A stretch of DNA of 64,000 bases. Origin: Gammaproteobacteria bacterium. Its GTDB lineage: Bacteria > Pseudomonadota > Gammaproteobacteria > Natronospirales > JAJUFS01. The stretch's first letter is position 1. Each line of letters opens with the position of its first letter. Location of the stretch: NCBI GenBank assembly GCA_033720895.1, contig JAWWBS010000002.1, positions 10,591 to 74,590 on the forward strand, in the 5' to 3' direction. Position numbers and translations under genes: made by a program. The notes beneath the pieces are model-generated. The model was given only the letters and a program-made list of their open reading frames with translations. It ran no database searches and was not told the origin of the DNA. Shown here piece after piece: positions 1 through 61,349 of the stretch.

Positions 1-649
1 CGTTGAACGAGGTCAGCATCGCGGTGTCGTTGTTGGCTTCCATCATGCGCTCGGCAATGCGCGAACGCAGGCGGGTCATCGGCACGCGACGCTCTTCACG
101 ACTGCCTCGCGCGGCCGGCGCTGCCGAACCGCTAGCCGCTGACGACTTGTCGGCCGGCTGGCTGCCGCCCTTGTCGCCACCGTTCTCCATGTAATCCAGC
201 ACATCGGCCTTGGTGAGGCGGCCGTCCTTGCCGGTACCCGAGATCTTCGACGGATCGAGGTCATGCTCTTCGACCAGGCGGCGAACCGACGGGCTCAATG
301 GCTTGTCGCCACCGCTCGACTTCTGCTCGCTCTTGCTCTCGCTCTTTTCCTGGCTGGCGGCAGGCTTGTCTTCCTTCTTGTCGCCATCAGAATCACCGGC
401 CGGAGCGCCTTCGCCCTCTTCGATCACGGCAATCACTTCATCGCTACCGACGGTCGAGCCATCCTCGGCCTTGATCGACTTCAGGACACCCGATGCCGGT
501 GCCGGGCACTCGAGCACGACCTTGTCGGTCTCGATGTCGACGAGGTTCTCGTCGCGCTCGACGTAATCGCCCTCTTTCTTGTGCCAGTTGACCAGCGTCG
601 CGTCGGCGACGGATTCCGGAAGTTGCGGAACCTTGACTTCGGTGCTCAT
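1..649 (-). CDS. sucB: Dihydrolipoyllysine-residue succinyltransferase (2-oxoglutarate dehydrogenase E2), N-terminal part; 3' end lies beyond the window edge
   Basis: The minus-strand frame is open from ATG at 649 to position 1, so it is absent from the ORF track (no in-window stop). My translation starts MSTEVKVPQLPESVADATLVNWHKKEGDYVERDENLVDIETDKVVLE (lipoyl domain with DIETDKV lipoyl-lysine motif). It continues with a charged Ala/Pro/Ser linker, an E3-binding-like LSPSVRRLVEEHDLD segment and RVPMTRLRSRIAERM. The start lies 2 nt after the sucA stop. Confidence 0.93.
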   Translation of the reverse strand, partial: MSTEVKVPQLPESVADATLVNWHKKEGDYVERDENLVDIETDKVVLECPAPASGVLKSIKAEDGSTVGSDEVIAVIEEGEGAPAGDSDGDKKEDKPAASQEKSESKSEQKSSGGDKPLSPSVRRLVEEHDLDPSKISGTGKDGRLTKADVLDYMENGGDKGGSQPADKSSAASGSAAPAARGSREERRVPMTRLRSRIAERMMEANNDTAMLTSFN

Positions 650-651
650 GA

Positions 652-3510: not shown

Positions 3511-3938
3511 TGTGTTGTTATCAACGCCCTTCTTGGTCGCGGAATTGATGACGGTAACCCCTTGGTCGGGGCCCTGCAGTCGCCGCATCACCCAAGCCCT
3601 TGAATTTCGGGAACTTTTTCGACTTCAACGGCCGAAAGCGATCAATCCGGGGAAACGCTGTGATGACACGAGCAACAGGGCGGAAAGTTTAGCTGATCTG
3701 GCAGGAAGAAGAAACGCCGTTTCCGGAAAAAATCCAAGCATGGCGGGCATTTGAAGCGCATTATTGCCGGATGCCAAAGCTCGTCGACAGCACCTGGCAA
3801 CGCGGCGCGGCGATCACCGCCAGCCAGCCAGGCGCGAAAAGCCGAGAACGCCAGTGCTGGCGTTCACCTCATTTGGCGACATTTATCGCTTTTTGTCGAG
3901 ATATCGCTGATTTTAAGCGAATTTTCAACCAGCAAGAT

Positions 3939-4015
3939 TGGTGCCCCGGGCAGGAGTCGAACCTGCGACCTGTCGCTTAGGAGGCGACTGCTCTATCCAG
4001 CTGAGCTACCGGGGC
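3939..4015 (-). tRNA. tRNA-Arg, anticodon CCT
   Basis: The minus-strand 77-nt sequence GCCCCGGTAGCTCAGCTGGATAGAGCAGTCGCCTCCTAAGCGACAGGTCGCAGGTTCGACTCCTGCCCGGGGCACCA folds as a cloverleaf: 7-bp acceptor stem, D arm GCTC/GAGC, anticodon stem GTCGC/GCGAC with loop CTCCTAA, T arm GCAGG-TTCGACT-CCTGC, encoded CCA. Confidence 0.95.
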
Positions 4016-14900: not shown

Positions 14901-15055
14901 CGCACGACACCAGCCACGGAGCATTCATCCGTGATCGCCAGGGCCTGGTAGCCCAGTGCGGCCGCCTGTGCCACCAGCTCCTCCGGATGCGAGGCGCCCT
15001 TCAGGAAAGTGAAGTTCGAGAGGCAGTGCAGCTCGGCGTACCCGGGCGCACTCAT
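11966..15055 (-). CDS. dnaE2: Error-prone DNA polymerase (DnaE2/ImuC)
   Basis: MSAPGYAELHCLSNFTFLKGASHPEELV is the typical DnaE2 PHP-domain start, followed by a Pol III alpha core and a C-terminal OB fold. ATG 15055 forms an ATGA overlap with the imuB stop. Confidence 0.95.
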   Translation of the reverse strand: MSAPGYAELHCLSNFTFLKGASHPEELVAQAAALGYQALAITDECSVAGVVRAWEAAREHGIKLLIGAEFRLEEGPTLVVLARDREGYNSLCRVITRGRRAADKGDYLLHQEDLADGLPGCWVLWIPGDIIDVATGQWLKGCFGERARLVAEWFGSDERQARFAQLEQAAMQLHLPIVACGGVQMHVRGRRALQDTLTAIRLRLPLAIAGYHLNPNGERHLRSRERIARIYPSTWREESLRLAASCTFRLDELRYEYPEELVPAGETPTSHLQQLTRQGMKQRWPQGAPDSVQRQVEHELRLIAEMRYEPFFLTVHDVVAFARSRDILCQGRGSAANSAVCFCLGITEVDPARMSLVFERFISKERDEPPDIDVDFEHERREEVIQYIYAKYGRERAALAATVITYRPRSAVRDVGKALGLASAQVENLARAFQWWDGRKQVAERIESAGLDPANPVIHRLCVLVDQLLGFPRHLSQHVGGFVIARNSLDELVPVENASMAERTVIQWDKDDLESLGLLKVDVLALGMLTAIRRALDMVNNWRGSEYSLATVPAEDPDTYAMIQQADTMGVFQIESRAQMAMLPRLRPACFYDLVIEVAIVRPGPIQGDMVHPYLRRRCGEETVSYPSDAVRHVLERTLGVPIFQEQAMQLAVVAAGFTPGEADRLRRAMAAWRKRGGIEPFRERLLDGMRDRGYSEAFAEQIYRQLQGFGEYGFPESHSASFALLVYVSAWLKCHEPAAFCAALLNSQPMGFYAPAQLVQDAQRHGVNILPVDVQCSDWDSTLERQADSEQDREPAVRLGLSRVRSLDVESAERLVAARRDRVFQSVNDLARRAGLSRQALEALAAADALRSLGGHRHRAFWNVAGVEAPMPLIREPEFAEALPMLAAPTEGQNIVQDYAQLGLTLGRHPLALLRARLLEARCRSAAELWKLPTDMPVRVAGIVINRQRPSTAKGVTFMTLEDETGQVNLIIWRKLAEQQRKVMLQSRLLVVDGQLQRQGDVLHVIAGNLEDRSEWLGRLATRSRDFH

Positions 15056-16626
15056 GCAAAGAAACCCTGCAACCACCATTGCCGGTCCCGACGGTCACGA
15101 AAGATCCACAGCAGGCTGCCCGCCCGGGTGCGGGCACGGAAATAATCCCGTTGCACATCCGTGCCATCCCACCAGCCTGACTCGATGCGCTCGGGCCCTG
15201 CCAGCAGCTCGAGCGCCCCCTGGTAGCAGGGCGAGCCGGCACGCAGGACCAGTCGCTCGGGTTCAGGCAGCAACCAGGCCGGTCGTCGCGGCAATGACGG
15301 CGCAAGGTCGACGTCCGCACCACCCGGTTCGACAAAGTGCCAGGCCAGCTCGGGGCGATGGTCGGCACGAGATGACAGGCCCTGCACGGCATCATGTCCC
15401 AGGCGAGCTCGCAGCAGTTCCACCAGCGCCAGCCGTTGCTGCTGGCGCTGCCAGTTCGGGAACAGGCTGGCAGCTTCGCCAGCGAAGCTCTCCAGCGACA
15501 AGGCCTCGAGGCTGATACTGCGCACGGGTTGCTCGAGCCGGAGGTTCTCCAGTTGCTGTTCCAGCAGTGCCCGCATGCGAGCAAGCGAACGCAGTCGACG
15601 GGCAAAGCCAACGGTGAACGATTGCTCGCTGCGATCACGCAACAGCAAGGTGAACCTCAATCCACGCACGCCTTGCTGGGTGACATGCAGATACGTGGCG
15701 AGTTCCTCCAGCAGGTGCATGGCAGGATGCAACAGCACAGGGGCATCACTGATTTCGTAGACGAGATCGAGCCGCGATCGGAATCGAGCCGGCAAGGACA
15801 GGCTTGTGCGCAGGTCTGGCTGGCGGCCAAGCGCCTGGTCCAGCATCGCGAGAGAGGATTTCCCGAAACGCCGGGCAAAGGCATCACGCGGCAGGCGCAA
15901 GGCATCGGCCACCCGCTGCACACCCATGCGCTGCAGGCGCTGTTGCAAGGCGAGAGGAAGATCCGTGGCCGCCAGCGGCAGGCACCCGAGCTTGCCCGGC
16001 AAGGCCTCGCTGGAACCCAGCAGCACACCGTCATGCACCCGGGACAACCAGCGCGCCGCCCGCGGTGTCGGCGCCATCGCCAGGCTGGCTTTGACGCCCA
16101 GTTCATCCAGCCCCTGCCGGACCCGGCGCAACAACGCGCGGCCGCCACCGAACAGGCGCAGCGAACCGCGCACTTCCAGCAACAGACCCGCACCATCGAG
16201 TGCCACCTGCGACGTGAAGCGATGCGCCCACCAGGCCAGCCGCCGCAACCACACGGCTTCGCGTGCAGCATCGCGATCCTGCACGGCAAGATCGGGCAGC
16301 AGGCTCCAGGCCGCTGCCAGGCTCATGCCGGGCACGACACCCGCCGACTCGGCCATGGCATTCACGGCCACGACCGTCACGGTACTGCCCTGCTCTTCGA
16401 TTACGGCCTGCGCTGTTTCCGCCAACGCAGCCTGGTGAAACACCTGCAGGGGCAAGGATTCGAGCTCGATGGCCAGCCACAGGTCGCGGCGCAATCGTTT
16501 CGTGTCAGCCCGCTGTGACGGACGCAGCGGCGCGCTGGCCGGGCGCGTACTGGCGACACGGGCCTCGGGAAAAAGGCTTTGCTGCGCAGGCAACGAAGAC
16601 CGCCTGTCATCAAGGGATGGCGCCAT
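15052..16626 (-). CDS. imuB: ImuB, Y-family polymerase-like protein of the mutagenesis cassette
   Basis: The conserved ImuB N-terminal region begins at ...DLWLAIELESLPLQVF, followed by a Y-family-like fold. The first ~46 codons after ATG 16626 have no ImuB-like character, so the true start may be further downstream. Confidence 0.85.
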   Translation of the reverse strand: MAPSLDDRRSSLPAQQSLFPEARVASTRPASAPLRPSQRADTKRLRRDLWLAIELESLPLQVFHQAALAETAQAVIEEQGSTVTVVAVNAMAESAGVVPGMSLAAAWSLLPDLAVQDRDAAREAVWLRRLAWWAHRFTSQVALDGAGLLLEVRGSLRLFGGGRALLRRVRQGLDELGVKASLAMAPTPRAARWLSRVHDGVLLGSSEALPGKLGCLPLAATDLPLALQQRLQRMGVQRVADALRLPRDAFARRFGKSSLAMLDQALGRQPDLRTSLSLPARFRSRLDLVYEISDAPVLLHPAMHLLEELATYLHVTQQGVRGLRFTLLLRDRSEQSFTVGFARRLRSLARMRALLEQQLENLRLEQPVRSISLEALSLESFAGEAASLFPNWQRQQQRLALVELLRARLGHDAVQGLSSRADHRPELAWHFVEPGGADVDLAPSLPRRPAWLLPEPERLVLRAGSPCYQGALELLAGPERIESGWWDGTDVQRDYFRARTRAGSLLWIFRDRRDRQWWLQGFFA

Positions 16627-27774: not shown

Positions 27775-30072
27775 TCAGTGCTTCAGGCTCGTGATGCTGC
27801 GCCGGGCATGCACGGACCTGTTCAGCATGAACTGATCGATCTCCTCCAGCGGCACGGCTCGTCCGAACAGGAAGCCCTGCAGCTCGTCACAGCCAATATC
27901 CTCCAGCTGGCGCTGGTGGCGCTCGATTTCGACACCTTCCGCAACAATGACCATGTCCATGCTCCTGGCCATGGCGACAATGGCATGAATGACCGAGCGG
28001 GCCTGTGGCTGGTCCATCTCATGCACGAAAAATCGGTCCACCTTGATGCAACCGACGGGGAATCGACACAGGTAGCTGAGCGAAGAGTAGCCGGTCCCGA
28101 AATCATCAAGAGCGATCTCGACACCCAGCTTGCGAAGTTCCGCGAGATTCTTGATGACCATTGGCTGGCTGTCGAGCAACAGGGTCTCGGTAATCTCGAT
28201 ACGCAAGAGGCGCGCATCCAGTCCGCTTGCATCGAGAATATCCCTGAGTTCCCAGATGAAACCCGGCGCCCGGACTTGGTCTGCGCTGACATTGATGGAA
28301 ATGTGAAATGAACGGCCATAGCGCGCATTCAATGACACGATGTCTCGACAGGCGCGCTCCAGGACCCACAGGCCGATGGCTTCCATCTGTCCTGTCTCCT
28401 CGGCATGACTGACGAAGCTGTCGGGCGACAGCAAACCGGATGTCGGGTGCTGCCAACGCAGCAATGCCTCGAAACCGCGCACCTCGCCGGAACCTGCGAT
28501 GACGATCGGCTGGTAGTGGAGTCGAAATTCGTCACGCTCGACGGCATGCCGCAGATCGCTTTCCAGTGCCAGCCGCTCGCGAGTGCCGACCAGCATCCCG
28601 GGATCGTACTGTACGGCCCGGCATCGCCCGGCACCCTTGGCCCGGTACATGGCAATGTCCGCCTGCTCGAGGATATGCAGGGCATCCACATCCTCGCCGG
28701 CAACCTTGCGAATGCCGATACTCGCGGAAATCTTGATCGCCAGATCGTCAACCAGGAATTCCTTGTCCAGCAATGCCAGGACCTGCTCGGCAATGCCCTG
28801 GCTATCCACGCTCCCCAGTCCGAGCTTGACCGCCAGGGCAAACTCGTCACCACCGAGGCGTGCGAGCGGCTCATTCGAGTCAACGACCGTCGCCAGGCGC
28901 TGCGCGGTTTCCCGGATGAGTCGATCCCCTATCGAATGGCCGAATGAATCATTGATCTTCTTGAAATAGTCCAGGTCGATGAAAAACACGGCGAAACTGG
29001 CAGTCCGGTCTGCTGCCATCATTGTCCCGAGTCGCTCCAGGAAGCAGGCGCGATTCAGCAGGCCCGTCAGGGGATCGAAGCTGGCGAGAAATCGCAGCCG
29101 CTCTTCCGAAGCACGCTGCTCCGTGATATCGGAAAACATCATCACGATGTCCGGCGACCGATCGAACATGGATGGGCTCAATACCACGTGCATGTGCGCG
29201 AGGAACTGCTCGCCACCCTTTCGACACCGCCAGGCCTCGCCCTCCCAGGCCCCTTCGCTGCGTACCCGCTTGCCGATTTTCCTGCAGAACTGGCTGTTGT
29301 CCGGATCCAGGCACAAGACATTCATCGGCTTGTTGACGACGTCCCTCGCATGGAAGCCGGTAATCCGGGTGAAGTTGCGATTGATCTGCTTGACGCACAT
29401 GCGACTGTCGAGGATGGCAACGGCATCATGCGTTCCTTCCATGACCTGGGCCGCACGCGTATAACGCTCCAGCCGCAACATCTCCTCGGTGACATCCTTG
29501 CAGGTACCAACGAAGCGATACCTGCGATCACCCTGCAGCCGTTCGCGATCCCGGAGCAGAACAGTCCTGGCGCGCCAGCGGATCCAGCGCAGGCGTGATT
29601 CGACAAGCGGTCCGCAGGCAACCCGCAGGGTCAGGTCGATCGAACGCACGGACTTGAAATCGTAACCGCTCAACAGCGCCTTGACCGATTGCCTGTCTGC
29701 CGGACGAATAAAACGCAGTGACTCGACAAGTGGCTGCGAGACAGGATCCGGGCCAAAGCCGAGATGTTGCAGCAGCCCGGCCGGCAAGTGGACCTGCCAG
29801 CCGGCATCCAGCTCCCACAGCCACTCGCCCGACCCCCACAGGGCGAGCCGCAGCTTGGCTTCGCTCTCCTCAAGCTCGGCCTGGCGCGCCTGCCGGCGGT
29901 GCTGCCGTTGTCGCGCCACGCTCGACGCAACCAGGGCAAGGATCAGCAGGCCGACGACCAGGCCTGCGTGCAGGATGTCCTCGGGACGGACCGGTGTGGC
30001 GGACAGGGCAGAGGGAATGAAAAGGGGGCGAGCAATATTCATGCGGGGCCGTGCTCTGGAAATCGACTGCAT
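27775..30072 (-). CDS. Membrane-anchored PAS/GGDEF/EAL c-di-GMP signalling protein
   Basis: It has an N-terminal TM segment (LHAGLVVGLLILALVASSVA), PAS-like regions, a GGDEF domain (RLGGDEFALAV) and an EAL domain (GFEALLRW...DDFGTGYSSLSYL). ATG 30042 is an alternative start. Confidence 0.88.
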   Translation of the reverse strand: MQSISRARPRMNIARPLFIPSALSATPVRPEDILHAGLVVGLLILALVASSVARQRQHRRQARQAELEESEAKLRLALWGSGEWLWELDAGWQVHLPAGLLQHLGFGPDPVSQPLVESLRFIRPADRQSVKALLSGYDFKSVRSIDLTLRVACGPLVESRLRWIRWRARTVLLRDRERLQGDRRYRFVGTCKDVTEEMLRLERYTRAAQVMEGTHDAVAILDSRMCVKQINRNFTRITGFHARDVVNKPMNVLCLDPDNSQFCRKIGKRVRSEGAWEGEAWRCRKGGEQFLAHMHVVLSPSMFDRSPDIVMMFSDITEQRASEERLRFLASFDPLTGLLNRACFLERLGTMMAADRTASFAVFFIDLDYFKKINDSFGHSIGDRLIRETAQRLATVVDSNEPLARLGGDEFALAVKLGLGSVDSQGIAEQVLALLDKEFLVDDLAIKISASIGIRKVAGEDVDALHILEQADIAMYRAKGAGRCRAVQYDPGMLVGTRERLALESDLRHAVERDEFRLHYQPIVIAGSGEVRGFEALLRWQHPTSGLLSPDSFVSHAEETGQMEAIGLWVLERACRDIVSLNARYGRSFHISINVSADQVRAPGFIWELRDILDASGLDARLLRIEITETLLLDSQPMVIKNLAELRKLGVEIALDDFGTGYSSLSYLCRFPVGCIKVDRFFVHEMDQPQARSVIHAIVAMARSMDMVIVAEGVEIERHQRQLEDIGCDELQGFLFGRAVPLEEIDQFMLNRSVHARRSITSLKH

Positions 30073-45526: not shown

Positions 45527-47494
45527 CTATCGCTCCGTCAGCGGCGACTGCGGCAGGCCACGGGATTCGGTCCCGCGCTCCAGCAGCTCGACCTGCTGCA
45601 AGTGATTCCGCAGGACCGCCTTGCGGCCCGGGTCGCGTGTGGCATTCAACAAACCCTGGAACTGCACCCGCGCATCGCCGTACAGCCCTGCTTTTACCAT
45701 TTCCTCGCCAGCCCTGAACTTCGACGTCTGCGCCCAGGGATCGGCCGCATAGGGATCAAACAGCAGTGCGGACCTCAGGTATTCCCGCGCGGCATCGGCA
45801 TGACGGCCCATTGCACTGAGCGAATCCGCGATCCAGTAGTGTAGTTCCCGCCGCGCCTGTTCCGAAGCCTCAAGCATGGACAATTGGTGAAAGAAGCGCA
45901 GCGCGGCGGCGTGTCGACCGAGGGTCTGGAGGTCGAACACGACCTGCAGGACCCGATCGCGATCCAGCGTGTACTCGCCGCTGGCGCGTCCGCCAAACAG
46001 GGTCTGCAAGGCATCGATACCGGCATCGATCGCGCCGCCCAGCAGCAGCACGCGCGCCCGGCGCAAATGCCATTCCACCGGGTCGGTCTCCTCCGGCGCC
46101 TGCTCGAGGCCGCGTACCAGCTTCGACGCCAGCGGAATGTCGGGAATTGCCAGCACGTGATTGACCAGCAGGTAACGAACAGCGGGCGGAATGCTGTCAG
46201 GCGTCGGGAAATGCTCCGAATCGAGATACAGCGCCTGCATCAGCTTGCCGCCACTGGGGACCCGCTGGTCCAGCAACGAGGCCAGCTGCCAGTGGGCAAT
46301 GTCGGCCTGGTCTTCTCGAAAAGCCTGGCGTGCAACGACGGCAAACAGGGCTCTCGCCTGGACGGGACTCTTGTCATAGCGATTGGACGCCGCCAGGAAC
46401 CAGGCCTCGTCCTCGCCCACGATCAACTGCTCCTGGTTGCCGAGACGCTCGCCATACTTCACGTAGGCATCCCACAAGGCGTCGGCATTGATCTCGATGA
46501 TCGGTGCTACGCCCGGCTCCGGTGAAAGGATCAGGCCACGTTCGAGTGCCGCGATTCGTGCTTCGCGACTGTTGAGCATGTCTGCAGCTTCCGCTGCCAC
46601 TGCCCAGGCCTCGCGGCGCAGTCCTTCCTTGATGTTCTTGTCCACGCCAAGCGAGACCGCCTGCTCGACGATCTTCTCCGGGGGTGTCGCGCCGGACCAC
46701 AACTTGCCGATCATGCGCAGTACCTGCGCATTCTGCGTATTGACGTCTTGCAGCAGTGCGACGGCCTCCTCGGGTGCCATGACCCGCAACGCAAGTCGCG
46801 CACGCTCGATGGTCCAGTCGTCATCCTGCAATTCGTAATCCTGCTGGTAACGCTGGATGGCCATGCGCGCCTCGTCGAGCAGGTCGGCTTGCTCATAGGC
46901 GCGGATCAGCAAACGCTGCCAGCCCATGCGCTCGGCCGTCGACAGCTGGCTGTCACTCCAGATCAGTCCCCGCAGGACGGGAATGGCTTCTTCGCCACGC
47001 TGACCGGCAACCAGCGCGGTAGCCAGTACCGATTGCGTCCAGCGCTGGTCCAGCAAGGACAGTGTCGATGGCAGCTCGCCGGAGAGATGCGCGATCAGTC
47101 GTTCCCAACGGCCACCCCGGCGCAGTATTTCCACCCGCAAGCGCTCGAAATTGCGCCAGGCTTCCGGATCCTTGTCGTAACTGGCCTGCGCCTCACCCAG
47201 CAGGTCTAGCGCAAGCTCCGGCGCACCGGCCATGGTCAGGCGCTGGATTTCTTCGATGGTGTCGGATGCGAACTGAGGTTCCGGCGGGGCTGCTTCGACA
47301 AGCTCCACCGCATCATCCCCGACCGTGATGTCACCATCGACAGCGTCAGCGACCTCGCCCTCGTCCGGCAGCGTGTTCGTGTCGGGCTGGCTGCTTATCG
47401 GGAAGGTTTCGGTACCGCCAGTCGCTGACGGCTCGCCACCCGCCGCAGGGGCAGCCAGCAAGACCAGGAGAAGGGAAGTGAATATCGGCTTCAT
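45527..47494 (-). CDS. Secreted ~655-aa all-helical (TPR-like) protein, unknown function
   Basis: It has a signal peptide (MKPIFTSLLLVLLAAPAAG), an acidic Pro/Thr-rich linker, then ~550 aa of helix-repeat-like sequence. Its stop TAG abuts the tatT ATG (TAGATG). I recognise no family. Confidence 0.6.
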   Translation of the reverse strand: MKPIFTSLLLVLLAAPAAGGEPSATGGTETFPISSQPDTNTLPDEGEVADAVDGDITVGDDAVELVEAAPPEPQFASDTIEEIQRLTMAGAPELALDLLGEAQASYDKDPEAWRNFERLRVEILRRGGRWERLIAHLSGELPSTLSLLDQRWTQSVLATALVAGQRGEEAIPVLRGLIWSDSQLSTAERMGWQRLLIRAYEQADLLDEARMAIQRYQQDYELQDDDWTIERARLALRVMAPEEAVALLQDVNTQNAQVLRMIGKLWSGATPPEKIVEQAVSLGVDKNIKEGLRREAWAVAAEAADMLNSREARIAALERGLILSPEPGVAPIIEINADALWDAYVKYGERLGNQEQLIVGEDEAWFLAASNRYDKSPVQARALFAVVARQAFREDQADIAHWQLASLLDQRVPSGGKLMQALYLDSEHFPTPDSIPPAVRYLLVNHVLAIPDIPLASKLVRGLEQAPEETDPVEWHLRRARVLLLGGAIDAGIDALQTLFGGRASGEYTLDRDRVLQVVFDLQTLGRHAAALRFFHQLSMLEASEQARRELHYWIADSLSAMGRHADAAREYLRSALLFDPYAADPWAQTSKFRAGEEMVKAGLYGDARVQFQGLLNATRDPGRKAVLRNHLQQVELLERGTESRGLPQSPLTER

Positions 47495-47499
47495 GATGC

Positions 47500-47532
47500 A
47501 AAAATGGCGGGCCCCGGAAAGGTCCCGCCATT
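47500..47532 (-). terminator. Rho-independent terminator after rplS
   Basis: On the minus strand, AATGGCGGG-acctttccgggg-CCCGCCATT is followed by TTTG. It ends 5 nt before the ATG of the 655-aa gene. Confidence 0.75.
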
Positions 47533-47598
47533 CTAACGGTTCAGGTCGCTTGCCTGCATCCGGCAACTTTCGAGCGAAAGCCGGCCGAATGCAGTCGA

Positions 47599-51208: not shown

Positions 51209-51976
51209 TCAGAAGTTGAACGTCTCGCCACCCATGAGGCGGTGCACGCGTCGCTCAGGAATGGCCTCCTCGATCTCGGAGAAAATCTGGTCCTCGGCGC
51301 CAGGCTTGAGATGGGTGATCCAGATATCCGGGTCGTGCTTCAGTTTCTTGAGGTCCGATGCAAGGGTCCGGGGGCAGTAATGCCTCGCCAGCCAGGCCAG
51401 CTCTTCATTGCGATTCCCGAAGGCTGTCTCGATCACGAGCAAATCCAGCCGGGGCAGCGCATTCAGGGCAGCCCAGAGGGTTTCATTGGATGCCGTGTCA
51501 CCGCTGAAGGCGAACACCTTGCCCTCGCTTTCGACAATGAAGCCCAGTCCCGGCACGGTATGGTTGACGTCGAATGACGTCAGCTTGCGCCCGCCGATGT
51601 CACGCAATGCGCCGACGGCCAGGTCATTCAATTGCAGGACCGGCTGTTCGGCGGTGGGCAGCATGGTGAAATCGGGCCACAGGATCCAGTTGAAGATGTG
51701 TTCGCGGATGGCCGTGAGGGTTTCCCGGCGAGCATGCACCTGCAAGGGGTCGTCAAGGCGTGCCTCGAAGACCGAATCGATCAACAACGGCAAGCCTGCC
51801 GTGTGATCAAGATGGGAGTGCGTCACGAAAACGTGCTTGATTGACTGCATCGCTTGCTGATCGAGATCCCCGATACCTGTTCCGGTATCTATGAGGATGT
51901 CGTCATCGATCAGGATCGACGTCGTGCGTAACCCGGCTCCAATCCCCCCACTGCAGCCGAGAATCTTGACCTGCAT
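51209..51976 (-). CDS. Class II 3',5'-cyclic-nucleotide phosphodiesterase-like MBL-fold hydrolase
   Basis: MQVKILGCSGG...VFVTHSHLDHTAGLPLLIDS is close to the class-II PDE signature HxHLDHxxG. No signal peptide, and 255 aa. Confidence 0.7.
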   Translation of the reverse strand: MQVKILGCSGGIGAGLRTTSILIDDDILIDTGTGIGDLDQQAMQSIKHVFVTHSHLDHTAGLPLLIDSVFEARLDDPLQVHARRETLTAIREHIFNWILWPDFTMLPTAEQPVLQLNDLAVGALRDIGGRKLTSFDVNHTVPGLGFIVESEGKVFAFSGDTASNETLWAALNALPRLDLLVIETAFGNRNEELAWLARHYCPRTLASDLKKLKHDPDIWITHLKPGAEDQIFSEIEEAIPERRVHRLMGGETFNF

Positions 51977-54357: not shown

Positions 54358-55719
54358 TCATTCGTATGCGGCGCGAATGGCCTGTTCCAGGCGCTGCACC
54401 GGCACGATCTCCAACCCATCGACTTTCAAACTGCGCGCCACGTTGCCCTTGGGCACGATGGCACGCTTGAAACCATGCTTCGCGGCTTCGTGCAGGCGCT
54501 CTTCGCCGTTGTAGACAGGTCGCACTTCTCCCGCCAGTCCCACCTCGCCGAACACGATCAAGCCGGTGCCCAGGGGTTTGTCGCGCAGGCTGGAAAGCGC
54601 CGCCAGCAACACCGGCAGGTCCGCCGCCGTTTCTGCAACGCGCAAACCGCCGACCACATTGACGAACACGTCCTGGTCGAACATGCCGACGCCACCATGG
54701 CGATGCATGACGGCCAGCAACATCGACAGTCGATTCTGCTCCATGCCGACAGCGACACGACGCGGGTTGCCAAGGTGCGACGTGTCGACCAGGGCCTGCA
54801 CCTCGACCAGCAATGGCCGGGAGCCTTCTCGTGTCACGGTCACGGCGCTGCCCGACACCGGTTCGTCATGCTTGGAAAGAAAGATCGCGGAAGGATTTTT
54901 CACTTCCTTCAGGCCGCCATCCATCATTACGAACACGCCCAGCTCGTTGACCGCACCAAAGCGATTCTTCACGGCCCGAATGACGCGATAACGCGAGCCG
55001 GCATCGTTCTCGAAATAGAGCACCGTATCGACCATGTGTTCCAGAACGCGCGGTCCGGCAATGACGCCTTCCTTGGTGACGTGCCCCACCAGGAACACCG
55101 CAATGCCGGTCTGCTTGGCCAGTCGCACCAGTTGCGCGGCCGTCTCGCGCAATTGCGCCACGGCACCGGGGGCCGACTGCAAGGCGTCGGTGTGAATGGT
55201 CTGGATGGAATCGACAATCAACACGCCCGGCTGCTCGCGACGAGCCACGGCGTTGATCGCTTCGACATTGGTTTCGGCCAGCAGCGACAGGCCGGCCGAT
55301 GGCACGCCAAGGCGACGCGCCCGCAGCCCCACCTGCTTGAGGGATTCCTCGCCGGTGACATACAGCACGTCCAGCTTTTCACTGAGCGTCGCCGCTGCCT
55401 GCATCAGCAGGGTCGATTTGCCGATGCCGGGATCGCCACCGATCAGGGTGACCGAACCGGACACCAGGCCGCCGCCCAGCACGCGGTCCAGCTCGCCGAT
55501 GCCGGTCTCGGTACGGGCCTCCTCGTCGATGGCCACTTCCTTCAGGCTCTGGGTCGCCGGTGCTTCGCCGGCCCAGCCCACGCTTCGACCAGGCGTGGAT
55601 TTCTCGACAATGGATTCGACCAGGGTGTCCCATTCATTGCAGGCGCTGCACTGCCCGGACCACTGCGGAAACTCGGCCCCGCAAGACTGGCAGGTATAGC
55701 GTTTCTTGGCCTTTGCCAT
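54358..55719 (-). CDS. radA: DNA repair protein RadA (Sms)
   Basis: MAKAKKRYTCQSCGAEFPQWSGQCSACNEWDTL (zinc finger), Walker A GGDPGIGKSTLL, KNRFG motif and a Lon-like C-terminal domain are present. Confidence 0.96.
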   Translation of the reverse strand: MAKAKKRYTCQSCGAEFPQWSGQCSACNEWDTLVESIVEKSTPGRSVGWAGEAPATQSLKEVAIDEEARTETGIGELDRVLGGGLVSGSVTLIGGDPGIGKSTLLMQAAATLSEKLDVLYVTGEESLKQVGLRARRLGVPSAGLSLLAETNVEAINAVARREQPGVLIVDSIQTIHTDALQSAPGAVAQLRETAAQLVRLAKQTGIAVFLVGHVTKEGVIAGPRVLEHMVDTVLYFENDAGSRYRVIRAVKNRFGAVNELGVFVMMDGGLKEVKNPSAIFLSKHDEPVSGSAVTVTREGSRPLLVEVQALVDTSHLGNPRRVAVGMEQNRLSMLLAVMHRHGGVGMFDQDVFVNVVGGLRVAETAADLPVLLAALSSLRDKPLGTGLIVFGEVGLAGEVRPVYNGEERLHEAAKHGFKRAIVPKGNVARSLKVDGLEIVPVQRLEQAIRAAYE

Positions 55720-55845
55720 GGTGGCTGGATTCCCTTCTATGATGGCTGTGCTCGGAACGCCCGGATGGTAGCACGCTGGCGTTTGCCTTTGACCGGGGGT
55801 CGGGTAGACTGGCTCAAACAACACCAATAAAAACGGGGGTTTGCG

Positions 55846-58605
55846 GTGTCTGGAAAAGGGGGCTTCTGGACCAGTGACTGGTTTTTCGGTCTGGTCTTTT
55901 CACTGCTGTTCTTCCTGCTCGCCTATGGCATCTACGCCGAAGCGTTCTCGCGCATGGAAACGGCCAGCTACGACATGGGCATGCGCATGTCCGGCGCTGC
56001 ACCCAGCGACCGTATCGCCGTCATCGAAATCGACGATGCCAGCATCGAGTTGATCGGCCGCTGGCCATGGCCACGCTCCGTGCATGCCGACATGATCGAC
56101 AAGCTGGCCGCCGGCGGCGCCAAGGTGATTGGCAGCACCGTGCTCTTCTCGGAAGCCCAGTCCGACCCCGGCCTGCAATACATCGACGACCTCGCCCGTT
56201 TCTACGACAGTTCCGCCCTCGGTGCAGAAGCCCCGCTGCCGGAACCCGAGCCGGTTGAAGACATGCCGGCGGACGACATGGCCATCGCCGCAGGCGAGGA
56301 GGCCGTCACTGGCGAGGACATGCCGGCCGAAGCGGACCAGCCTGAAACGACCAGGCCCGCCGCGGCAGACGAAGAAAGGCTTGCCGACGCCGCCGAAGGC
56401 GACGTCCTGGGAGATGGCGACATCCCGGCCATCATTTACCAGACCCCGGAAGAAGTCGTCTCTGCCCTGCTCGAATTGCGGATCCGCATGGCGACCGCCG
56501 ACGATGTGCTGGACACGGACAAGCAGCTGGCCGCCAGCATAGCCAACGCCGGCAATGTCATCCTTCCGATGACCCTGACCGAACCGAACCCGATCGGCCG
56601 CCCGGATGCCGAGCTGCAGCCATGGCTGCTGGCCAATGCGATCATGAATGTGTCGGCCTCGGAGCTGGCGGTGGACCCGCTCAGCTACGGTGCCATCCAG
56701 CCGCCGATCCCGGCGCTGGCCGAATCCTCGGCAGGCCTCGGTCACATCCTGATCATTCCCGACGTGGATGGTGCGCTGCGGTTCGAACCGCTGGCCGTTC
56801 AATACGACGGCCTGCTGTTCCCGTCCTTTTCCCTCGCTGTCGCCGCACAAAGCCTGAACCTGACGCCGGGCGACATGGAGGTGGTGCTGGGCCGAGGCGT
56901 CAATCTTGGCAACCTGCAGATCGGCACCACGCCCGAGCTGCTGATGTACAACTACTATTACGCCTCCGACAACAAGGACAGCTTCGACCACTATTCCTTC
57001 ACCGATGTCTGGCAGGGCGTCGTGCCGGTCGAGCGCTTCAAGGACAAGATCGTGTTGATCGGAGCGACCGCGCTGGGCGTCGGCGACTCCTTCCCGACGC
57101 CGGTGGCGCCGAACATGGCGCCGGTCACCACCGTCGCACACACGATTTCCGCCATTCTCAAGGAAGATTTCTTTACGCGTCCCGACTGGGCGCTGTATGC
57201 CGAGCTCGGCACCTTCCTGCTGCTGGCGCTCTATCTCATTGCCATCCTGCCGCGCCTGCGTCCCGGCATGGCCGCGCTGGCATCGCTCGGCCTGCTGGTT
57301 GCGATTCTCGTAGCGGAATTCTCGCTGCTGACTGGCTCTTCCATGTGGCTGCGCCTGACGGTGCCGGTCATGTTCCTGGTCTCCGGGCACCTGCTGATCA
57401 CCATCAAGCAGTTCCGCGTCACCGACCGCATCCGCTTGAAGTCGGAAGCAGAAGGTGCGGAGAGCAACAAGATGCTCGGCCTTGCGTTCCAGCAGCAAGG
57501 CCAGCTCGACATGGCCTTCGACAAATTCCGCAAGTGCCCGATGGACGATTCGGTCATGGACGCGCTTTACAACCTCGCGCTGGACTACGAGCGCAAGCGC
57601 CAGTTCAACAAGGCCGGCTCGGTTTATTCACACATGGCCGAACACAATCCGAACTACAAGGATCTGCAGAAGCGCATGAAGCGCTCTCAGGCCATGGAAG
57701 AAACCATCATGCTGGGTGGTTCCAGCGGCGGTCATCCGGGCGGCACCCTGATGCTCGATGGCGACGAAATGCAGAAGCCGATGCTCGGCCGCTACCAGGT
57801 GGAGCAGGAGCTCGGCAAGGGCGCCATGGGCATCGTCTACGGTGGCCGTGACCCGAAGATCAACCGAGTCGTGGCGATCAAGACCATGGCGCTGTCGCAG
57901 GAGTTCGAGGCCGACGAACTGGATGAAGTGAAGGAGCGCTTCTTCCGGGAAGCGGAAACGGCCGGGCGACTGAACCACCCCTACATCGTGACGATCTACG
58001 ATGCCGGCGAAGAACACGACCTTGCCTACATCGCCATGGAATTCCTGAAGGGCAAGGACCTGGTGCCGCACACCAAGGCGGACAACCTGCTCCCGGCCAG
58101 GCAGGTCTGCGACATGATGGCCAACGCTGCCGAAGCACTGGCCTATGCGCACAGCAATGGCGTGGTGCATCGCGACATCAAGCCAGCGAACATCATGTAC
58201 AACCCCGAAGACAAGTCGATGAAGCTGACCGATTTCGGCATTGCCCGAATTACCGACAGCTCCAAGACCAAGACCGGCATGGTGCTGGGCACCCCCTCCT
58301 ACATGTCGCCCGAGCAGCTCGCCGGCCAGAAGGTCGATGGCCGCTCCGACCTGTTCTCGCTGGGCGTGACTTTCTACCAGCTGCTGTCAGGACAACTGCC
58401 CTTCCGGGCCGACTCCATGGCTGCGCTGATGTACAAGATCACCAACGAAGAGCATGCACCGGTAAGCCTGGTCCAACCGGACCTGCCGGCCTGCCTGGAT
58501 GCTATTATCAACAAGGCACTCGACAAGAATGTCGACAACCGCTACCAGAATGGTAACGAAATGGCCGCCGAGATCCGGGCCTGTGCAGGTCAGTTGCCGG
58601 GCTGA
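55846..58605 (+). CDS. CHASE2 sensor domain / TPR-like linker / C-terminal Hanks-type Ser/Thr protein kinase
   Basis: The start is GTG. It has an N-terminal TM segment and CHASE2 signature (DRIAVIEIDDASIELIGRWPWPRSVHADMIDKL..GAKVIGSTVLFSE) and a block of 3 TM helices (~aa 450-525). A TPR-like segment follows (LGLAFQQQGQLDMAFDKF...YNLALDYERK). The kinase domain has all catalytic motifs (GKGAMGIVY, VAIK, HRDIKPAN, DFG, SYMSPE). Confidence 0.88.
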   Translation: MSGKGGFWTSDWFFGLVFSLLFFLLAYGIYAEAFSRMETASYDMGMRMSGAAPSDRIAVIEIDDASIELIGRWPWPRSVHADMIDKLAAGGAKVIGSTVLFSEAQSDPGLQYIDDLARFYDSSALGAEAPLPEPEPVEDMPADDMAIAAGEEAVTGEDMPAEADQPETTRPAAADEERLADAAEGDVLGDGDIPAIIYQTPEEVVSALLELRIRMATADDVLDTDKQLAASIANAGNVILPMTLTEPNPIGRPDAELQPWLLANAIMNVSASELAVDPLSYGAIQPPIPALAESSAGLGHILIIPDVDGALRFEPLAVQYDGLLFPSFSLAVAAQSLNLTPGDMEVVLGRGVNLGNLQIGTTPELLMYNYYYASDNKDSFDHYSFTDVWQGVVPVERFKDKIVLIGATALGVGDSFPTPVAPNMAPVTTVAHTISAILKEDFFTRPDWALYAELGTFLLLALYLIAILPRLRPGMAALASLGLLVAILVAEFSLLTGSSMWLRLTVPVMFLVSGHLLITIKQFRVTDRIRLKSEAEGAESNKMLGLAFQQQGQLDMAFDKFRKCPMDDSVMDALYNLALDYERKRQFNKAGSVYSHMAEHNPNYKDLQKRMKRSQAMEETIMLGGSSGGHPGGTLMLDGDEMQKPMLGRYQVEQELGKGAMGIVYGGRDPKINRVVAIKTMALSQEFEADELDEVKERFFREAETAGRLNHPYIVTIYDAGEEHDLAYIAMEFLKGKDLVPHTKADNLLPARQVCDMMANAAEALAYAHSNGVVHRDIKPANIMYNPEDKSMKLTDFGIARITDSSKTKTGMVLGTPSYMSPEQLAGQKVDGRSDLFSLGVTFYQLLSGQLPFRADSMAALMYKITNEEHAPVSLVQPDLPACLDAIINKALDKNVDNRYQNGNEMAAEIRACAGQLPG

Positions 58606-58629
58606 TTGCCCGCGGATAGGGATAGGGAC

Positions 58630-59451
58630 ATGAGCTTCAAAGGAAAACTCCAATTCGTGGGCCTGACCGATACCGGACGCGTCCGCTCGCATAACGAAGA
58701 CGCCATCGGCACCGAGATCGAAATCGGCCTGGTGGTGCTCGCCGACGGCATGGGCGGTTACAAGGCCGGTGAAGTCGCCAGCGCCATGGCCGTCGAGACC
58801 ATTACCGAAACCGTCAGCAAGGGCTTGAAAACAGCGCGCAAACAGAAGGTCGGCGAGTCCGGCTATGCCGCCGAGACCCTGCTGCTGAGGAAGGCCGTCG
58901 AAGCGGCCAATGCCCGGATCCACAACACGGCCAAGGACAATCCGCAGTGCGAAGGCATGGGCACCACCGTCGTGACCTGCCTCTACTATGACAATCGCGT
59001 CTCGATCGCCCATGTTGGCGATTCGCGCCTGTACCGGGTCCGCGGGGACCGATTCGAACAGGTCACTCTCGATCACTCCCTGCTGCAGGAACTGGTATCC
59101 CGGGGGTTCTACACGCCCGAGGAGGCCCGGAAATCACTGAACAAGAACCTGGTCACCCGGGCGCTGGGTATCGAACCCACGGTCAAGGTGGACGTCCAGG
59201 AAGACGTCGTGCTGCAGGGCGAGATCCAGTTGCTCTGCTCCGACGGCCTTTCCGACATGGTCGAGGACGAGGATATTCACTTAACTATCAGCACCTTTAG
59301 TGCTAATCTTGACACAGCGGCTCAACAGTTGGTCAGGATGGCAAATGATAACGGCGGGCGTGACAACGTCTCCGTGGTGCTTACCAAAGCGCTGAAGTCT
59401 TACGGGGACAAACAAGGCTTCTTCAACCGATTCATGGACTGGTTCGCCTGA
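58630..59451 (+). CDS. PP2C-family Ser/Thr protein phosphatase (Stp1-like)
   Basis: TDTGRVRSHNEDA, LADGMGG, GTTVV, AHVGDSRLY, LLCSDGL and GGRDNVSVV are the metal-binding PPM motifs. The start is ATG 58630, 25 nt after the kinase stop. Confidence 0.9.
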   Translation: MSFKGKLQFVGLTDTGRVRSHNEDAIGTEIEIGLVVLADGMGGYKAGEVASAMAVETITETVSKGLKTARKQKVGESGYAAETLLLRKAVEAANARIHNTAKDNPQCEGMGTTVVTCLYYDNRVSIAHVGDSRLYRVRGDRFEQVTLDHSLLQELVSRGFYTPEEARKSLNKNLVTRALGIEPTVKVDVQEDVVLQGEIQLLCSDGLSDMVEDEDIHLTISTFSANLDTAAQQLVRMANDNGGRDNVSVVLTKALKSYGDKQGFFNRFMDWFA

Positions 59452-59477
59452 CACATCACCGGTATTGAGGGCAGGAA

Positions 59478-60197
59478 ATGGGAAAGTTAATCCTGAGTTT
59501 GGACGGGGCCGTACTGGCCGAGTACGAGATGGACAAGGAACGGTTCACCATTGGCCGCCTCGCCGACAATGACATCCATGTCGACAACATGGCCGTCAGC
59601 GGACACCATGCGCTGATCATCAACATCCTGAATGATTCCTTCCTGGAAGACCTGAACAGCACCAACGGCACTTACGTCAACGGCAAGCTGATCAAGAAGC
59701 ACGCCCTACAGGACGGCGACACCATCACCATCGGCAAGCATGCTCTCAAGTACGTCAACGAAGCTGCGTCCGCTGTTGGCGGCGGCGATGACGACGACGA
59801 GGATGATTTCGAAAAGACGATGATCATCCGTCCGGGAGCGAAGTCCGGTGGACCGAGCCTCGACAGTGTCAACAAGGCAGTCGAAGGTGCCGGCGGCGCA
59901 CCGGTCAACCCGGACGCCCAGAAGGGTCTGCCGAAAGCCAAGCTGCAGGTTCTGTCCGGCGCCTTTGCCGGCAAGGAACTGGAATTGAACAAGGCCTTGA
60001 CCACGCTGGGTCGCCCTGGCGTGCAGGTTGCTGCCATCACCCGTCGTGCCGATGGTTTCTTCGTTGTGCCGGTCGAGGGTGATTCGGGCAAGCCACCAAC
60101 CGTCAACGACCAGGAAGTCGGCAAGGAAGGCAAGAAGCTGGCACACAACGACGTTATCGAACTGGCCGGCGTGAAGATGGGCTTTTTCGAAATCTGA
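59478..60197 (+). CDS. FHA domain protein (canonical N-terminal FHA, acidic linker, degenerate FHA-like C-terminal domain)
   Basis: The N-terminal part carries the FHA G-R...S..H...N-G signature (FTIGRLADNDIHVDNMAVSGHHALI...DLNSTNGTYVNG). The linker is GGGDDDDEDD. The C-terminal part (LTTLGRPGVQVAAITRR...TVNDQEV) keeps GR but lacks SxxH. Confidence 0.85.
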   Translation: MGKLILSLDGAVLAEYEMDKERFTIGRLADNDIHVDNMAVSGHHALIINILNDSFLEDLNSTNGTYVNGKLIKKHALQDGDTITIGKHALKYVNEAASAVGGGDDDDEDDFEKTMIIRPGAKSGGPSLDSVNKAVEGAGGAPVNPDAQKGLPKAKLQVLSGAFAGKELELNKALTTLGRPGVQVAAITRRADGFFVVPVEGDSGKPPTVNDQEVGKEGKKLAHNDVIELAGVKMGFFEI

Positions 60198-60221
60198 TCT
60201 TTGCCATTGCACAGACACGAG

Positions 60222-60253
60222 AAAGCCGGGCAATGCCCGGCTTTTCTTTTTCC
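60222..60253 (+). terminator. Rho-independent terminator after the FHA gene
   Basis: AAAGCCGGGC-aat-GCCCGGCTTT is followed by TCTTTTTCC. Confidence 0.85.
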
Positions 60254-60269
60254 AGCTGGCCTGGCTTCC

Positions 60270-61349
60270 CTACTCGCCCTGCAGGGTGAAATCGACGCGC
60301 TGCGTGACCCCGCACAGCAGCTCGTAGGGAATCGTGCCGGCGGCAACAGCAATCTCCTCGACGGGCAGGCCTCGACCCCAGAGCACCACCTCATCACCTT
60401 CCTGTGCATCCGGCTGGCTGTCCAGGTCCACGGCGATCATGTCCATGCTGACTCGGCCGATCAGCGGCACGCGCTGGCCGTTGACCAGCACCGGCGTGCC
60501 GTTGCCAGCGTGTCTCGGATACCCATCGCCATAGCCGATAGCCGCGATGCCATAACGCTTCGGCTTGTCTGCCGTGAACCGGCCGCCATAACCGATGCTT
60601 TCCCCGGCCGCCATCTGCTTGACCGCGATCAGCTCGGTCGAGACGGTCATCACCGGCCGCAGGTTCTGCTCCGTGCCGTTCTCGTCGATGATCGGGCTGA
60701 CGCCATACAGTGACACGCCGGGACGCACCCAGTCAGCGTGCGACGCGGGAAAGGCCAGGGTGCCTGCGGAGTTGGCGATGCTGAGCTCGCCACCGAGGTG
60801 TTCGGTGGCCTCGCGAAACAGTTCGATCTGGGCGGAGGTTGCCGCCTCGTCCAGGTCATCGGCCTTGGCGAGATGGGTCATCAGGCGTGGCGTGCCCGCA
60901 ACGGCATTCGAGTCGAGAACACGCTGCCACGCGGCAGGAAATTCATCCAGCTTGAAACCGAGGCGGTTCATTCCGGTATCGAGCTTCACCCAGATCGGCA
61001 GGCGCGAGCCGGAATAGGCTTCCAGCCAGGCAAGCTGGCGCTGCGTGTGGACGACCAGTTCGAAGCCGGCTTCCGCCGCGAGGGAAATTTCTTCCGGGGC
61101 GAAAGCCCCCTCCAGCAGCAACACCGGCGTATCGACACCGGCGGCACGGATGCGTCGAGCCTCATCAAGGCTCGCGACGGCAAAGAGTTCGGCTTCCGGC
61201 AAGGCACGCACCACGGCTTCGAGACCATGGCCATAGGCATTCGCCTTGACCACGGCCATGACGCGCGCACCATCGGCACGCTGGCTCAATACCTGGAAAT
61301 TGTGGCGGAGCGCATCGAGATCGATGACCGCGCTGGTTGCCCTGGTCAT
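60270..61349 (-). CDS. alr: Alanine racemase
   Basis: AVVKANAYGHG (PLP-lysine motif) and the C-terminal YELLCGV..RV are present. It forms an ATGA overlap with the dnaB stop. Confidence 0.95.
   Translation of the reverse strand: MTRATSAVIDLDALRHNFQVLSQRADGARVMAVVKANAYGHGLEAVVRALPEAELFAVASLDEARRIRAAGVDTPVLLLEGAFAPEEISLAAEAGFELVVHTQRQLAWLEAYSGSRLPIWVKLDTGMNRLGFKLDEFPAAWQRVLDSNAVAGTPRLMTHLAKADDLDEAATSAQIELFREATEHLGGELSIANSAGTLAFPASHADWVRPGVSLYGVSPIIDENGTEQNLRPVMTVSTELIAVKQMAAGESIGYGGRFTADKPKRYGIAAIGYGDGYPRHAGNGTPVLVNGQRVPLIGRVSMDMIAVDLDSQPDAQEGDEVVLWGRGLPVEEIAVAAGTIPYELLCGVTQRVDFTLQGE

Follow-up and report, generated by a model that had tools for sequence, protein, structure and literature searches.

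We identified a three-gene operon at positions 55846-60197 of a 64,000-nucleotide stretch of DNA from a Gammaproteobacteria bacterium (assembly GCA_033720895.1, contig JAWWBS010000002.1, positions 10,591 to 74,590; hereafter the window, whose own numbering is used throughout). It encodes a CHASE2 receptor serine/threonine (Ser/Thr) kinase, a PP2C phosphatase and a tandem-FHA adaptor, which as writer, eraser and reader of phosphothreonine make up a genuine membrane sensor system. With high confidence, we assign the operon to a conserved CHASE2-kinase/PP2C/tandem-FHA cassette, as a genuine member that is independent of the type VI secretion system (T6SS). Taken as a whole, the explanation that we consider rather probable is a conserved accessory receptor-kinase cassette that would act as a transmembrane Ser/Thr phospho-relay, with the adaptor leading to cyclic-nucleotide signalling. 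That the output of the triad is cyclic-nucleotide signalling is, as a claim of its own, put forward tentatively from gene neighbourhoods, with cAMP/cGMP metabolism or effectors as the best-supported target class because the same cassette clusters with such genes in other lineages.

To delimit the operon, we used a mechanical list of open reading frames (ORFs) with translations, which placed three co-directional ORFs on the + strand: the kinase gene (55846-58605, GTG start, 919 amino acids), the PP2C gene (58630-59451, ATG start, 273 amino acids) and the FHA protein gene (59478-60197, 239 amino acids). The mechanical PP2C ORF begins at a TTG at 58606, and the ATG at 58630, which has AGGGA ahead of it, is the conserved start; the resulting gaps are 24 nt between kinase and PP2C (58606-58629) and 26 nt between PP2C and FHA genes (59452-59477). 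A public, independent gene call on the source contig (ENA ERZ28654253, scaffold_2) gave identical products of 919, 273 and 239 amino acids, and an identical kinase protein (P0001) is present in public records. The operon is closed by an intrinsic terminator on the same strand (60221-60255), whose hairpin (60221-60245; 11-bp stem with 7 GC pairs, 3-nt loop) is followed by a T-run, CTTTTTCC, and begins 24 nt past the FHA stop codon within the 72-nt convergent gap to alr. The first-pass annotation of this DNA, made from the letters alone, had described three co-directional genes with gaps of 24 and 26 nt and a terminator, and the ORFs, the independent gene call and the hairpin all agree with it. 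At the other end, the 126-bp divergent intergenic region between radA and the kinase gene (55720-55845) presumably holds the operon promoter, radA having its true start at an ATG at 55719 on the minus strand. A G-rich element resembling a ribosome-binding site (ACGGGGG) lies 6 nt ahead of the kinase GTG, and a promoter scan of 55600-60400, with the 126-bp region included, returned no sigma-70 consensus. GC content across the module is unremarkable at 0.58-0.65.

Evaluating the kinase, we found by Pfam and hydropathy the sensor-first order that had been proposed for it, namely CHASE2, a block of three transmembrane (TM) segments and a C-terminal kinase domain, with all features on the + strand. 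TM1 (amino acids 13-31, 55882-55938; score 2.16 in a Kyte-Doolittle 19-residue window) precedes the periplasmic CHASE2 sensor domain (amino acids 32-449, 55939-57192), which is followed by the three-TM block (amino acids 450-468, 477-495 and 500-520; 57193-57405), a cytoplasmic linker (amino acids 536-608, 57451-57669) and a Hanks-type, PknB-like catalytic domain (amino acids 650-899, 57793-58542). Because hydropathy gives one TM segment before and three after CHASE2, the N terminus would be cytoplasmic, CHASE2 would face outwards, and the linker and kinase would be inside the cell. The Pfam CHASE2 match (PF05226; 186.2 bits against a cutoff of 26.3, E = 1.1e-54, amino acids 23-460) and the position of the domain between TM1 and the C-terminal TM block identify a CHASE2 receptor. 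This match to a 257-position profile stretches over amino acids 23-460, and an acidic, Pro/Ala/Glu/Asp-rich insert of 111 amino acids at about 105-215 (29 D+E versus 5 K+R) is lineage-variable and not conserved in an alignment of 80 kinases. For the linker, the position proposed in the first-pass annotation holds, and the TPR label rests on a sub-threshold TPR_2 match (22.7 bits against a cutoff of 27, amino acids 572-604), next to a weak MamA-like match at amino acids 536-608.

The catalytic domain is recognised by Pkinase (PF00069; 187.5 bits against a cutoff of 31.7, E = 4e-55, amino acids 650-899) and carries GKGAMG at 657, VAIK at 676-679 with K679, HRDIKPAN at 775-782, DFG at 796-798 and SPE at 821-823; the score and the full motif set identify a Hanks-type Ser/Thr kinase. 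These motifs, described before as intact, are indeed all present and are invariant in a 12-sequence alignment (A1). The nearest solved relative is Mycobacterium tuberculosis PknB (1o6y, E = 3e-56). The stretch that joins the TPR-like region to the kinase domain holds an E-T620-x-x-L623-G-G motif; across 80 orthologues, conservation reaches at least 90% for T620 and at least 98% for L623, from which we infer that T620-x-x-L623 is a candidate pT-x-x-L docking site.

The phosphatase exceeds the cutoff of the NCBIfam Stp1/IreP equivalog model NF033484 (252.4 bits versus 230), scores 53.7 bits with Pfam PP2C_2 and 45.3 bits with PP2C, and has the metal-binding motifs NED, DGMGG, SDGLSD and RDN readable in its translation, features that mark it as a bona fide Stp1/IreP-family PP2C.

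The third protein pairs a canonical FHA domain with a second, FHA-like one, which had been called degenerate in the first-pass annotation and for which the modelled fold matches only FHA domains while pocket residues are missing, as expected from that description. The N-terminal domain (amino acids 1-95, 59478-59762, +; Pfam FHA 7.2e-24) is identified as FHA by PF00498 (84.5 bits against a cutoff of 20.7, amino acids 24-86), and its phosphothreonine-binding residues R27, S41, H44 and N63 are invariant in 33 FHA-protein sequences. The full-length AlphaFold2 (AF2) model is mediocre (pLDDT 68), and its best PDB matches are the FHA domains of GarA and OdhI. A disordered acidic linker follows (amino acids 96-150, 59763-59927, +), with pLDDT below 50 over amino acids 98-148. 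Within it, orthologue conservation singles out the motif F-E-K-T114-M-I-I-R-P-G (59808-59837, +): conservation of T114 and M115 is at least 98% among 59 orthologues, and alignment A2 shows no variation at F111, E112 or I117. A pT-x-x-(I/L) preference is established for many FHA domains, and because the T114 motif and the T620 motif of the kinase both fit it, we read both as candidate FHA ligands; the linker T114 motif would thus be a candidate phospho-acceptor as well as a candidate ligand.

The C-terminal domain (amino acids 151-239, 59928-60197, +) was assigned by AF2 modelling and Foldseek. By sequence it falls below the Pfam FHA cutoff (12.6 bits against 20.7, E = 0.19), with a YscD-type match at E = 0.002, and an hhalign comparison of the N and C halves of the protein gave E = 4e-4 at 35% probability. 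A model of amino acids 146-239 alone, for which the alignment was shallow (16 sequences, 65-91% identity), reached pLDDT 83.5 and pTM 0.74, and its Foldseek matches in the PDB were exclusively FHA domains, with GarA best (E = 9e-6, TM-score 0.76-0.80), followed by OdhI, YscD and DgcB (TM-score 0.70-0.80 overall). Conservation of this domain equals that of the N-terminal one ('KALTTLGRPGVQVAAITRR'). It is without the SxxH motif, and its Arg179, in a Gly-Arg pair, is Lys or Gln in betaproteobacterial orthologues; because SxxH is missing and the Arg is not conserved, we call the second pocket degenerate. In the predicted structure, then, the C-terminal half adopts an FHA fold whose phosphothreonine pocket is degenerate, and the missing residues suggest that this second fold is probably phospho-independent.

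To place the operon in its family, we searched for kinase relatives and found 2717 proteins at E ≤ 1e-10; among the listed full-length relatives at 50-76% identity, all carry CHASE2 and Pkinase. The relatives occur in at least 589 stretches of contigs taken from one genome per species, with carriers in unclassified Gammaproteobacteria, Nevskiales, Natronospirales, Thiotrichaceae, Rhodocyclaceae, Burkholderiales, Nitrosomonadales and Usitatibacteraceae. Neighbourhoods were compared in the 80 loci that best matched the query among those stretches, using tblastn and our own ORF clustering, with heuristic gene calls (longest ORF, GC weighting at third codon positions) and single-linkage clusters. 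In 67 of the 80 loci PP2C comes next after the kinase, and in at least 58 the tandem-FHA gene comes third; across these triad loci the order and strand of kinase, PP2C and FHA gene are constant and the gaps short.

The same 80 loci revealed at least four unrelated backbones around the triad. One is that of the window, radA / triad / alr-dnaB-rplI; in Betaproteobacteria the triad lies beside DUF2889-like/sucC/sucD/TerC genes; a gammaproteobacterial context has it beside dnaQ-rnhA and an MltD-like gene; and a fourth reads rne-rluC-HAD-SppA / triad / rlmD-cysM-TonB receptor-hybrid histidine kinase. Because its contexts are unrelated and no type VI neighbour recurs among the annotated families, the triad behaves as a self-contained accessory unit. 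A comparison of neighbourhoods had been proposed to see whether the triad is always at this locus, and the answer is that it is not, since it occupies these several backbones and in many loci lies near cyclic-nucleotide genes. The module had likewise been placed between DNA repair and replication genes; that location is correct, but the cassette sits in other housekeeping contexts too, and to judge from these neighbourhoods its placement next to radA, alr and dnaB is incidental, with no functional meaning detectable. The label 'orphan' fits the locus of this lineage and does not fit the family, a widespread cassette with a cyclic-nucleotide neighbourhood in Betaproteobacteria and several gammaproteobacterial clades.

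Other arrangements of the kinase were also seen. Seven loci in Usitatibacter and Burkholderiales (L035, L045-L047, L067, L069 and L076) have a lone CHASE2 kinase with no PP2C or FHA gene, which directly precedes a DUF2889-like gene and sucC-sucD. One Sterolibacterium metagenome-assembled genome (JBAYVU01) has a full kinase-PP2C-FHA-cyclase-MBL cluster (MBL, metallo-beta-lactamase fold) on each of two separate contigs (L029 and L080), either as a true duplication or as a mixed bin.

The neighbourhoods link the cassette to cyclic nucleotides: 38 of the 58 triad loci have at least one cyclic-nucleotide gene, identified by its Pfam domains, no more than 10 kb away. Counted over the 80 loci, cyclase domains occur in 35, GAF-HD-GYP proteins in 32, MBL/PDEase_II proteins in 31, proteins combining cyclic nucleotide monophosphate (cNMP) binding with rhodanese in 22 and GAF-T2SSE ATPases in 21. 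In the betaproteobacterial context, the triad is followed co-directionally by a paralogous protein of about 745 amino acids with CHASE2 and a class III cyclase, and then by an orthologue of an MBL/PDEase_II gene of the window; also in this series are a GAF-MshEN-T2SSE (PilB-like) ATPase, a GAF-HD/HD_5 (HD-GYP-type) protein and, often, a cNMP-binding and rhodanese protein, with a type IV pilin in six loci. The gammaproteobacterial dnaQ-rnhA context has the cNMP-binding/rhodanese and GAF-HD-GYP genes upstream of the triad and the CHASE2 cyclase downstream. Elsewhere the triad is followed by a convergent MBL-cyclase pair (L005) or a convergent cyclase (L008), has a cyclase 6 kb off (L023) or a GAF-HD-GYP gene directly after the FHA gene (L027). 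The linkage thus survives differing gene orders and orientations (L071, L043, L005, L008, L023, L027 and L040), and because it persists through rearrangements we argue that it is under selection. As an observation on the clusters themselves, L071 (14494-22548), L018 (14386-22258) and about 20 other betaproteobacterial loci carry a cyclase-MBL-cNMP-ATPase-HD-GYP-pilin cluster after the triad, and the GAF-regulated PilB-type ATPase of these clusters looks unstudied.

Within the window, the only member of this cyclic-nucleotide set is the MBL gene itself, which encodes a class-II cAMP-phosphodiesterase-like protein of 255 amino acids (51209-51976, -) and lies between ffh and ypjD, 4 kb upstream of the triad. 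The protein matches Pfam Lactamase_B_2 and PDEase_II (40.7 bits versus a cutoff of 23.7), has a weak match to Apyc1, an anti-Pycsar cyclic-nucleotide hydrolase, and is 49% identical to the MBL protein encoded after the CHASE2 cyclase in L071. We searched metagenome contigs with an MBL alignment and examined the 80 best relatives for synteny, which revealed a widespread ffh-MBL-ypjD order, shared by almost all of these relatives, with ffh beside the MBL gene in 40 of the 43 metagenome loci of at least 8 kb. This order holds with or without the triad, so we rejected the MBL gene as a local partner of the triad; backbone synteny being independent of the triad, the adjacency of ffh and MBL is unusable as evidence of local coupling. 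Gene order therefore makes a functional link between the window MBL protein and the triad doubtful.

Some relatives without kinase and PP2C at the radA locus carry, between radA and corC, a single tandem-FHA paralogue that is 26-31% identical to the adaptor of the window over its full length, as in L111 (6258-7268, -), L100, L129, L137 (6688-7383, -), L145, where the flank is shorter, and L150. The L111 paralogue, at that same locus, has in addition a PilZ domain at its C terminus (Pfam 59.9 bits), a fusion that connects the tandem-FHA scaffold with cyclic-(di)nucleotide sensing and supports the broader cyclic-nucleotide hypothesis.

Joining these parts, we propose that an extracytoplasmic cue would act on CHASE2 and change kinase activity, whereupon the kinase would autophosphorylate on activation-loop T808/T810 and possibly also on its conserved T620-x-x-L motif. 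The N-terminal FHA domain of the adaptor would dock on phosphothreonine, with pT620 as a candidate, and the adaptor would itself be phosphorylated, most plausibly at linker T114-M-I-I, a pT-x-x-I type of FHA ligand. So modified, it would switch, by self-binding as in GarA/OdhI or by oligomerisation as in the Rv1747 module; the second FHA fold, if phospho-independent, would hold or release the target, and PP2C would reset the system. A speculative extension, which we rate as possible and on balance unlikely, joins the CHASE2 kinase and the CHASE2 adenylate/guanylate cyclase as a dual-output sensor pair, in which the adaptor, switched at its linker Thr, would gate the cyclase or phosphodiesterase, and GAF effectors, namely the PilB-like ATPase and the HD-GYP protein together with a pilin, would control type IV pilus-type surface behaviour. 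If true, this would be an undescribed pathway from Ser/Thr phosphorylation through cyclic nucleotides to pili in many Beta- and Gammaproteobacteria, of which the window would show a stripped-down core.

Several points weigh against the cyclic-nucleotide explanation. The 80 loci are a non-random sample, the linked loci are phylogenetically clustered, which leaves few independent events, and 20 of the 58 triad loci, with the whole lineage of the window among them, have no tight cyclic-nucleotide linkage. The 64-kb window holds no cyclase, cNMP-binding, GAF-ATPase or GAF-HD-GYP gene. At the MBL locus, radA-side sequence extends over at least 9 kb in 27 metagenome loci, of which 13 have the triad, 5 the tandem-FHA paralogue only and 9 neither. 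The phospho-sites and the switching of the adaptor are proposed from conservation and known FHA preferences, and the ligand of CHASE2 is unknown in general (PMC10581220).

How the cassette compares with known systems bears on what else it might do. Kinase/PP2C/FHA triads are well known in Actinobacteria, as in the M. tuberculosis PknB operon, and the PknB-PstP-FhaA/FhaB system shares with ours a PknB-like catalytic domain and PP2C and FHA partners in one operon. On this model the cassette would be an envelope and growth regulator of the PknB/Stp/FhaA-FhaB type, with CHASE2 reporting envelope state, the adaptor controlling peptidoglycan or division proteins, and the cyclic-nucleotide neighbours incidental. 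The rank of the matches speaks for it, PknB being the closest solved kinase, Stk1/PknB the best kinase match in NCBIfam (303.6 bits) and FhaB/FipA the best NCBIfam match of the FHA protein (64.8 bits), with the PP2C above its Stp1/IreP cutoff, but the scores do not follow: the PknB-PASTA model NF033483 calls for 450 and is matched over the catalytic domain only (amino acids 646-914), with no PASTA repeats, and the FhaB/FipA model NF049868 calls for 125. An N-terminal periplasmic CHASE2 domain stands here in place of the C-terminal PASTA repeats of PknB, the operon has no cell-wall synthesis genes, and the adaptor has two FHA folds. Of the neighbours that would suit an envelope role, alr adjoins the triad here and an MltD-like gene, recognised by reading its translation, lies nearby in another context; alr, however, is convergent, beyond the terminator and missing from other contexts, and no pbpA, rodA, ftsW or division genes recur beside the cassette. 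We therefore consider an envelope role distinctly unlikely.

The adaptor alone invites a comparison with GarA/OdhI of Actinobacteria: both are compact FHA proteins that stand alone and keep a conserved Thr motif beyond the FHA domain, and fold-back of that motif would be the shared behaviour that we infer here. Were the likeness functional, the FHA protein would be a metabolic switch that inhibits a tricarboxylic acid cycle enzyme, for example 2-oxoglutarate dehydrogenase, unless phosphorylated. In its favour, both FHA domains find their best structural matches in GarA and OdhI, many betaproteobacterial loci have sucC and sucD flanking the kinase, and sucA and sucB, by their translations, are at 2-3591 of the window. 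Against this, the OdhI/GarA model NF041660 scores 48.4 bits versus 200, a central linker, not an N-terminal ETTS tail, holds the candidate phospho-site, and there is an extra degenerate FHA fold. The sucCD adjacency is confined to one lineage and looks like backbone synteny, DUF2889-sucC-sucD being a common betaproteobacterial arrangement, and the sucAB genes of the window are 52 kb off. A metabolic switch of this kind is very improbable.

A kinase/PP2C/FHA triad is also known from the control of type VI secretion (PMC5995506), and our cassette resembles PpkA/PppA/Fha1-TagH in that a proteobacterium groups the genes for a Hanks kinase, a PP2C and an FHA reader. It could on that ground be the Thr-phosphorylation switch of a T6SS encoded elsewhere in the genome, and some public annotations of FHA orthologues do read 'predicted component of type VI protein secretion system', next to which stands a weak TagH match of 42.2 bits. 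That score is far from the TIGR03354 cutoff of 120.25, the FHA protein is a short tandem one of 239 amino acids versus about 420 positions in the TagH profile, and the sensor-first CHASE2 kinase is the reverse of PpkA, which has an N-terminal kinase and a periplasmic C-terminal domain. Reading the ORF list, running Pfam on ten large ORFs and checking Pfam annotation within 10 kb either side of the kinase showed us no recognisable type VI gene in the 64-kb window, the remaining smaller ORFs being judged by reading alone; nor was there one among the annotated recurrent neighbour families of the 80 loci, several smaller recurrent clusters being unannotated. The earlier statement that no type VI genes are nearby therefore holds for the window and extends to those annotated families, and on the TagH score, the kinase topology and the neighbourhoods we rejected type VI membership, to which we give only a slight chance. 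A role in anti-phage defence, as a kinase like those of PD-T4-6 or MADS, is equally hard to credit, since the matches in its favour (up to 304 bits for the kinase domain versus PADLOC PD-T4-6 models, 228 bits versus mad6, and a partial NCBIfam MAD6 match of 151.9 bits against a cutoff of 460) span the generic catalytic domain only (amino acids 646-915), the FHA and MBL proteins have no PADLOC match and the PP2C a marginal one, identity of at least 50% across two classes in stable housekeeping synteny is unlike defence islands, and the kinase has a periplasmic sensor domain.

Returning to the receptor-kinase cassette with an adaptor towards cyclic nucleotides, three further systems help to define what is particular to it. 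The regulatory module of Rv1747 reportedly has two FHA domains and a phosphorylatable disordered linker and is fused to an ABC transporter. Our adaptor, which matches PDB 6ccd, is similar in its two FHA folds, its disordered linker with a conserved Thr and its Hanks kinase partner; it differs in standing alone, with no ABC transporter fusion, and in a second domain without phosphothreonine-binding residues. Bdellovibrio DgcB (FHA-GGDEF; PDB 6hbz, 6hc1), matched by both FHA domains, is a case in which FHA couples Ser/Thr phosphorylation to a second messenger; in DgcB, FHA and cyclase form one polypeptide and cyclic di-GMP is the messenger, whereas here the adaptor is separate and a coupling is suggested by gene neighbourhoods only. 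Cyanobacterial CHASE2 Ser/Thr kinases share the N-terminal CHASE2 and C-terminal kinase (PMC2176072), and this architecture is already known from cyanobacterial surveys (PMC2176072, PMC2877116); the family described here differs in being proteobacterial, in its fixed PP2C and tandem-FHA operon and in its recurrent CHASE2 cyclase linkage.

Our literature searches on CHASE2 with FHA, PP2C, Hanks, pili or PilZ returned domain surveys only and no study of the cassette, and in the papers searched we found no description of a fixed proteobacterial tandem-FHA cassette, of its conserved Thr motifs or of its linkage to a CHASE2 cyclase and GAF/cNMP effectors. To our knowledge, proteobacterial kinase/PP2C/FHA triads outside T6SS have barely been studied. 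The cassette family is large, strongly conserved and compact, and the near-invariant motifs of its adaptor are directly testable. Its linkage to a CHASE2 cyclase and cNMP effectors offers a concrete hypothesis of cross-talk between Ser/Thr phosphorylation and cyclic nucleotides in environmental bacteria; should that link be unreal, the operon would be merely another orphan sensor kinase operon.

As for the surroundings of the triad in the window, the flanks were confirmed as radA upstream and alr, dnaB and rplI downstream. The upstream neighbours run rplS-trmD-rimM-rpsP-ffh, the MBL gene, a ypjD-like gene, a CNNM/CorC gene and radA, and those downstream are alr, dnaB, rplI, rpsR and rpsF. Further away, the larger ORFs encode an AcrB-type pump, DnaE2, ImuB, PutA, a PAS-GGDEF-EAL protein, SppA and parts of a TRAP transporter. 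DnaE2 (1037 amino acids) and the ImuB-like protein (524 amino acids, IMS family) form a pair at 11966-16626 (-), an error-prone polymerase cassette of the SOS mutagenesis type, and the PAS-GGDEF-EAL protein (765 amino acids, 27775-30072, -) is a second-messenger enzyme unlinked to the triad. Rfam and tRNA scans of the window returned tRNA-Arg only, namely tRNA-Arg(CCT) at 3939-4015 (-), after which about 2 kb (to 5900) contain only short, odd-looking ORFs and could be an integration remnant or poorly coding DNA. A protein of 679 amino acids (45527-47566, -) has no Pfam match at E ≤ 1e-4, and its gene lies beside rplS in six related loci (cluster C33).

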